Positions 6,358 to 7,037 of a stretch of DNA of 9,819 bases are shown here, in pieces. Below the pieces are notes generated by a model. The model saw nothing but the letters and a program-made list of their open reading frames with translations. It made no database searches and was not told the origin of the DNA. Source of the stretch: a virus (Duplodnaviria; Heunggongvirae; Uroviricota; Caudoviricetes); the IMG/VR virus record IMGVR_UViG_2645727743_000024. One strand, 5' to 3'. The translations under genes and the position numbers were made by a program. Each line of letters starts with the position of its first letter. The stretch's first letter is position 1.

Positions 6358-6699
6358 TCATCGTACTACGTTGTTACGGCTTTGCCGCAACAAGCCAGTT
6401 GCCTGCCGCGCTCGCAGAATGTCTGCAGCCCGGAGATAAGGAGATTGTTCCTGCCAGCTAAATCCCTTCCTGTCGATACGAACCAGCTCGTATTTTTCTA
6501 CCAGAAAATTCACGGCATCGGCTAGGGTGATACCGGCATCGATGTGTTCCTTAATCACAGCCTCATTGCAGAATGGCGTGTCGTTTATTGTCAGACCATA
6601 GTGCTGTTCCAGCAGACGTGTCAGTAACATTTGCCAGACAGCCACGGGTGACAGGCAGGGCTTCACCGCCCGCTGAGTTGTTGCAGGTAAAGTTTTCAT
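6358..6699 (-). CDS. cbtA: type IV toxin-antitoxin toxin, CbtA family (YkfI/YpjF/YeeV-like)
   Basis: 113 aa from ATG 6699 ([37 protein letters not shown]...), matching recalled YkfI/YpjF/YeeV sequences. The track ORF (6762) is an N-terminal extension; the internal ATG has GAGAG upstream and is 20 nt past the antitoxin stop. The symbol is the family name; the exact paralogue is unresolved. Confidence 0.85.
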
Positions 6700-6719
6700 G
6701 TTTGCTCTCGTGTAGGTAA

Positions 6720-7037
6720 TTAACGCTGAGTGGGGTAAATGGCGATGTATACGTAGCCGCAACTGCCAAGGGTGTCGGCTTCGCAGGTTAAATCGTTGTG
6801 GTACAGGGTAACGCAGTGGGCATGGTGGGGGCTGAGTTCACCGGTGGTCAGCATCGATTCCATCTGGCGGATAAAGTGCGGGAATGTTTCATCCAGCTTC
6901 CGGCATTCGATGTCACTGAACTTGCCGGTGATGCTGGCCCGGTCAGCCAGATAATGCAGTCGGTTGCCTTCCTGCACCAGACGGGCTCCCAGGCGCAGTG
7001 TAATCTCCCGCTGCAGGCCCCTGGTAGGGTTGCTCAT
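6720..7037 (-). CDS. cbeA: type IV toxin-antitoxin antitoxin, CbeA family (YafW/YfjZ/YeeU-like)
   Basis: 105 aa; [26 protein letters not shown] and [15 protein letters not shown] match the recalled family; GGAGA precedes ATG 7037; immediately upstream of the toxin on the same strand. Confidence 0.85.

Follow-up and report, generated by a model that had tools for sequence, protein, structure and literature searches.

A probable yafW-ykfI toxin-antitoxin module of the cryptic prophage CP4-6 beside a tandem insertion at thrW

Identity of the toxin-antitoxin pair

[quoted passage not shown] Both genes lie on the minus strand. The antitoxin gene, yafW, occupies positions 6720..7037 (ATG at 7037, TAA at 6720) and encodes a CbeA-family protein of 105 aa; the toxin gene, ykfI, occupies positions 6358..6699 (ATG at 6699, TGA at 6358) and encodes a CbtA-family protein of 113 aa. 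The spacer between them is exactly 20 nt long (6700..6719, minus strand), as had been predicted, and this antitoxin-toxin order on the same strand with a short gap is the type IV gene arrangement. Sequence inspection places a Shine-Dalgarno-like GGAG 8 nt 5' of the yafW ATG and a weak Shine-Dalgarno-like GAGAG, within the spacer, 5 nt 5' of the ykfI ATG. Both open reading frames are full length with proper starts, in agreement with the original prediction: they contain no frameshifts and no premature stops, and the corresponding Pfam profiles are covered end to end.

The toxin matches Pfam family PF06755 (CbtA_toxin) with an E-value of 2.2e-68 and a score of 227.8 bits (cut-off, 25) over profile positions 1 to 112 of 112. 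The antitoxin matches PF06154 (CbeA_antitoxin) with an E-value of 1.7e-49 and a score of 167 bits (cut-off, 27) over profile positions 3 to 101 of 101. Both E-values are much too low for chance. Every sequence-level defining feature of the two families was tested, and all are present. Sequence matching to solved structures identifies those of YfjZ (2ea9 and 2jn7; E about 4e-57) as the nearest to the antitoxin, with YeeU (2h28) matching at E 3.7e-37; the YfjZ and YeeU structures are crystal and NMR structures. No solved structure was found for the toxin family, and the top structure match of the toxin (E 0.72) is meaningless. NCBIfam has no model for the toxin or the antitoxin, nor for the neighbouring DUF987 and YafX proteins; the only match was that of its RadC family to YkfG.

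A mechanical list of open reading frames had offered a longer, 134-aa toxin starting at a TTG at position 6762. We rejected this start: the match to the Pfam profile starts with the methionine of ATG 6699, which is also the start taken in the K-12 and RefSeq annotations.

The CbtA/CbeA family call and the intactness of the pair proved right, and the identification can be narrowed to YkfI/YafW of CP4-6. Positions 5958..9811 align with positions 262,928..266,781 of E. coli K-12 MG1655 in one ungapped blastn alignment at 99.7% identity (11 mismatches in 3,854 nt), and this segment is colinear with the thrW-proximal end of the K-12 CP4-6 prophage. The alignment to the three K-12 paralogue pairs called for by the original prediction was run: the toxin shares 112 of 113 residues with K-12 YkfI (the difference is I7T) and the antitoxin shares 104 of 105 with K-12 YafW (L57R), and the other pairs are more distant. 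Both substituted positions vary among the paralogues, with residue 7 of the toxin being T in YpjF and L in CbtA, and residue 57 of the antitoxin being S in YfjZ and K in CbeA. We use the names ykfI and yafW of CP4-6 because the locus is near-identical to the characterised K-12 locus. Judged by its sequence, it is the same locus as K-12 b0245/b0246, more than a relative, and is thus already known, with an allele common in sequenced E. coli. Sequence evidence against the YkfI/YafW assignment is nil, and the gaps are confined to mechanism.

The 11 mismatches to K-12 are unevenly spread, with three in 8626..8672 and four in 9161..9177. The two that fall within the pair, at 6680 and 6868, are both non-synonymous.

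The pair also resembles the two other K-12 systems of this type. Like K-12 CP4-6, the window has the antitoxin-first gene order, the 20-nt spacer, the same flanking genes, and the thrW-proximal position, but K-12 CP4-6 has a complete thrW directly beside the island, whereas the window retains only its last 19 nt, with another element in between. The YpjF/YfjZ pair of CP4-57 belongs to the same two Pfam families and shares the antitoxin-first order, the 20-nt spacer, and, upstream of the pair, genes for antirestriction, RadC-like, and DUF987 proteins. It is nevertheless a paralogous locus on a different island, with the window toxin 80% identical to YpjF and the window antitoxin 84% identical to YfjZ. 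The founding type IV system, CbtA/CbeA (YeeV/YeeU) of CP4-44, comprises the same families and retains F65, but is more distant: the window toxin is 57.5% identical to CbtA and the antitoxin 60% identical to CbeA. CbtA is 124 aa long with a C-terminal extension, as opposed to 113 aa for the window toxin; CbeA has a 14-residue N-terminal extension relative to the window antitoxin; and the cbeA-cbtA spacer measures 88 nt, compared with 20 nt in yafW-ykfI and yfjZ-ypjF (PMC5371832).

Positions 6200..7100 match 573 of 5,426 complete E. coli genomes, with at least 99% identity in 447 records. Among the matches listed, at least 25 E. coli genomes, E. coli C included, carry this segment at 100% nucleotide identity, and RefSeq names the two products in those 25 "type IV toxin-antitoxin system toxin YkfI" and "antitoxin YafW". 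The pair is of little importance beyond its right annotation; it is a textbook CbtA/CbeA-type pair with an allele common in E. coli.

Surrounding genes and transcription

The pair closes a string of five minus-strand genes, in which yafX is first and ykfI last and the gaps measure 8 to 20 nt. The yafX gene (7778..8236) encodes an antirestriction-family protein (PF03230; E 4.3e-39) that is one residue off K-12 YafX. It is followed by ykfG (7286..7762), which encodes a RadC-like JAB-domain protein (PF04002; E 5.7e-47), and by ykfH (7056..7277), which encodes a DUF987 protein (PF06174; E 4.2e-40); both products are identical to those of K-12. The ykfH stop lies 18 nt from the yafW ATG. Further upstream on the same strand are ykfF (8334..8573; DUF905, with a Pfam match), which is open in the window; an open reading frame without a Pfam match at the K-12 ykfB position (8650..9117); and a gene for a YfjS/YafY-type lipoprotein with a Pfam match, which corresponds to yafY in the K-12 order. 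The order ykfI, yafW, ykfH, ykfG, yafX, ykfF, ykfB, yafY is shared with K-12. On the other side of the toxin, between it and the att core described below, a 21-codon remnant of the ykfN pseudogene (6180..6242, minus strand) has a translation identical to that in K-12.

[quoted passage not shown] Wen et al. 2017 also treat yafX through ykfI as one operon (PMC5371832). A hairpin resembling an intrinsic terminator (6263..6297, minus strand) lies 61 nt beyond the stop codon of ykfI, with a GC-rich stem of 14 pairs followed by CTTTTT (tail, CTTTTTACGG). This hairpin dominates both the minimum-free-energy and the centroid folds of positions 6240..6360, with a z-score of -2.9, and is a probable operon terminator according to these models. 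A promoter scan of the minus strand upstream of yafW and near the pair gave no convincing sigma-70-like promoter.

A second terminator-like hairpin with a T-run is found on the minus strand in the gap between ykfF and yafX (8259..8281), with 8 pairs, 6 of them GC. Its T-run abuts the Shine-Dalgarno sequence and ATG (8236) of yafX, and a promoter would not fit between them. This second hairpin may have arisen by chance or may act as an attenuator; the terminator consensus scan returned 5 sites of this kind against 3.4 expected. The ykfF gene beside it, intact in the window, has a counterpart in AP021891 (positions 23344..23583 of the related locus L004) that is annotated as a pseudogene and has an internal stop.

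Open reading frames on the plus strand at 6798..7316 (172 aa) and 7298..7744 (148 aa), as well as a 42-aa frame at 6226..6354, have no Pfam match, and we take them as antisense or chance frames. The first of these lies opposite yafW and ykfH, and the GC-rich coding sequence of those genes most likely gives rise to it as a by-product. No YeeW-like gene, such as the one 3' of cbtA, was detected 3' of ykfI by tblastn of YeeW against 5901..6400, and the region downstream of ykfI has no nucleotide similarity to that downstream of ypjF.

The pair might be intact yet silent, a passive remnant of a cryptic prophage with no role in maintenance or physiology in this strain. In K-12, all three pairs are transcribed at low levels, deletion of toxin or antitoxin has no effect on growth, and neither protein autoregulates the operon (PMC5371832), all of which would be compatible with silence, as would the outcome of the promoter scan and the finding that the only two differences from K-12 within the pair are both non-synonymous. 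The intact reading frames, ribosome-binding sites, and terminator argue otherwise, however, as do the identical sequence in many unrelated E. coli isolates and the oxidative stress and biofilm phenotypes seen when the paralogue set was deleted (PMC5371832). On balance we consider a silent pair unlikely and favor a functional yafW-ykfI module.

Predicted mode of action

The activities described for the K-12 proteins provide the basis for the mechanism we propose. Overproduction of K-12 YkfI halts growth and produces lemon-shaped and then gourd-shaped cells, followed by lysis (Wen et al. 2017, PMC5371832). An adenylate-cyclase two-hybrid assay detected binding between YkfI and FtsZ (PMC5371832), and YkfI was independently found to bind FtsZ strongly, with the F65S substitution abolishing binding (Heller et al. 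2017, PMC5624674). CbtA, YpjF, and YkfI all need F65 to bind FtsZ, and the binding of YkfI depends on the H6/H7 loop of E. coli FtsZ (PMC5624674). CbtA shares with YkfI both the lemon-shaped cells and the FtsZ H6/H7-loop target (PMC5624674). F65 is retained in the window toxin. By analogy with K-12 YkfI, one residue apart, the window toxin would thus be expected to contact the H6/H7 loop of FtsZ via a surface that includes F65 and to block Z-ring assembly, and its overproduction would yield lemon-shaped cells and then lysis.

The original prediction named MreB as a second target of the toxin. Its FtsZ part agrees with the two-hybrid results for K-12 YkfI (PMC5371832, PMC5624674), but its MreB part is an extrapolation from CbtA, and two laboratories detected no interaction of YkfI with MreB: none of the six toxins and antitoxins gave an MreB two-hybrid signal in one study (0/6; PMC5371832), and the YkfI-MreB interaction was likewise undetected in the other (PMC5624674). 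The latter study does report MreB binding for CbtA and YpjF, so that an MreB two-hybrid signal is detectable with YpjF but not with YkfI. R15 of CbtA, which is needed for MreB binding (PMC5624674), is replaced by C15 in the window toxin, and a cysteine also occupies this position in K-12 YkfI and YpjF. Cells producing YkfI-F65S become spherical, indicating that YkfI also blocks elongation (PMC5624674); given these round cells, the elongation block presumably acts via MreB.

For the antitoxin, K-12 YafW neutralises YkfI, although only partially from a single cis construct, and the three genes upstream of yafW add no neutralisation (PMC5371832). YafW neutralises YpjF and CbtA as well as YkfI, and YfjZ and CbeA likewise neutralise YkfI, so that cross-neutralisation spans the three paralogous pairs (PMC5371832). 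CbeA is described as binding and bundling FtsZ and MreB polymers, and not CbtA, and as giving protection from further inhibitors of FtsZ (Masuda 2012, cited in PMC5624674); according to the same work, as cited in PMC5371832, no CbtA-CbeA complex was found in vivo. Because all three paralogous pairs cross-neutralise, YafW most likely works like CbeA, its 60%-identical paralogue. By this analogy, YafW would offset YkfI by binding FtsZ and MreB polymers and gathering them into bundles, and would not sequester the toxin. The original claim, that CbeA-family antitoxins bind the cytoskeletal proteins and not the toxin, has biochemical support for CbeA only; the K-12 data for YafW itself consist of neutralisation, cross-neutralisation, and an FtsZ two-hybrid signal far below that of the toxin (PMC5371832).

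YafW could instead neutralise YkfI by another route, such as a weak or short-lived direct contact with the toxin or competition with it for one and the same surface of FtsZ, in which case the type IV label would be wrong. In the published accounts of Masuda 2012 cited above, the bundling shown biochemically is that of CbeA only. In the two-hybrid assay, the FtsZ signals of the antitoxins were far below those of the toxins and their MreB signals were nil, which, with the partial neutralisation in cis, could point to such a route (PMC5371832), as could a CbeA homologue from Erwinia that rescues cells with no detectable binding to FtsZ or MreB (PMC6521040). Yet sequestration sits poorly with the failure to find a CbtA-CbeA complex in vivo and with the shielding by CbeA against unrelated FtsZ inhibitors, both as relayed from Masuda 2012, and it also sits poorly with the neutralisation by the three antitoxins of non-cognate toxins that are 58 to 80% identical to their own partners. 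Cross-neutralisation of toxins at this level of identity fits action on the target and not on the toxin. We therefore regard a non-bundling YafW as quite unlikely and retain the CbeA-like mechanism.

In the Erwinia homologue pair, FtsZ and MreB binding was undetected for both partners while the antitoxin still rescued (PMC6521040). The FtsZ/MreB mechanism is thus not guaranteed across the family, a caveat that weighs lightly on a YkfI that is 99% identical to that of K-12. The functional features were shown for proteins one residue off each member of the window pair, and would extend to the T7 and R57 alleles by likeness. Any statement of mechanism for YkfI/YafW should therefore present YkfI-MreB binding and YafW bundling as putative steps.

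The att core and the tandem insertion at thrW

The last 19 nt of the tRNA-Thr gene thrW (ACTCCTATTATCGGCACCA) are found at 5958..5976 on the plus strand, identical to the K-12 thrW 3' end, and the homology to K-12 begins exactly at this att core. The core is single-copy in the window, with 0 copies expected by chance. The pair had been placed at the very end of the island, next to the att core. This placement is accurate in that 381 nt separate the toxin stop from the core and the pair is the last intact module of CP4-6 before the border, at the integrase-distal end; it needs revision in that the core is not that of CP4-6 alone. Left of the core lies the integrase of another element, and CP4-6 is not directly adjacent to an intact thrW here; ARAGORN finds no complete tRNA gene either in the window or in L004, the related locus. 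The intact thrW is missing beside CP4-6 because of a tandem insertion, which alters the context of the pair but not its identity.

The left element (1..5957) is a second, unrelated one; it is phage-like and has a lower GC content (0.35 to 0.46) than positions 6401..9800 (0.51 to 0.57). Its genes specify a capsid-E-family protein (546..1574), a protein resembling tape-measure proteins (1878..3707), a tail protein of Dit-like type (3742..4455), and a tyrosine integrase (4537..5871, minus strand). Many E. coli genomes carry positions 1..5994 at about 96% identity. In AP021891 (locus L004), the same 19-mer is present at both ends of the phage-like element, 12,492 bp apart. Since the 19-mer flanks the element there, the core at 5958..5976 has two roles, forming the right junction of the tandem phage-like element and, for CP4-6, the left border; it marks a tandem insertion at thrW and not a simple island end. 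At about 12.5 kb, the element is small for a complete phage and could be either a satellite or a prophage that has degraded. What mild interest the region holds lies outside the pair, in the small element just described and in the tandem arrangement at thrW.

The original prediction also suggested that the pair, by its position, could stabilise the island. As an addiction module, it would maintain CP4-6 or the whole thrW array by killing cells that lose the island. The last-module position does recur in all three K-12 CP4 islands, with ypjF 189 nt from the end of CP4-57 and cbtA 805 nt from the end of CP4-44, compared with 381 nt here, and other toxin-antitoxin systems are discussed as stabilising ICEs and superintegrons (PMC5371832). 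Addiction requires, however, that the antitoxin be the less stable of the two proteins and the sole antidote to the toxin. In K-12 the antitoxin deletions are viable, expression is low, autoregulation is absent, and YkfI is also neutralised by YfjZ, CbeA, and possibly YagB (PMC5371832); these properties speak against addiction of the classical kind where a strain has several paralogues. We found no island-stabilisation experiment in the literature searched, and what suggests stabilisation by the pair is its position. We regard addiction as doubtful.

Because a ~12.5-kb element sits between thrW and CP4-6, the pair can also be viewed as part of a composite island, at a junction inside it, where it might serve in competition between elements, in retention of the whole array, or as an abortive-infection device set off when phages attack the division machinery. 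The position of the pair is what suggests such roles, and PADLOC matches no defence model to the pair or to the three genes upstream of it; we consider these roles very improbable. The reading of the pair as the yafW-ykfI module of CP4-6 is the same in either context.

Two further observations concern the attachment sequences. In K-12, CP4-6 as annotated takes in the last 49 nt of thrW, and CP4-6 in the window adjoins only 19 nt. The tandem insertion may have cost CP4-6 part of its left attachment sequence, and this, if true, could affect independent excision of the prophage. In NZ_AP021891.1, a 112-nt feature annotated as "tRNA-Ser" (L004 8383..8494), which ARAGORN does not recognise, ends in the thrW core and adjoins another integrase. 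The feature resembles a chimera that contains part of thrW, situated where a further integrated element with trb and traJ genes adjoins; on that reading, thrW in AP021891 would be the site of at least three stacked elements.
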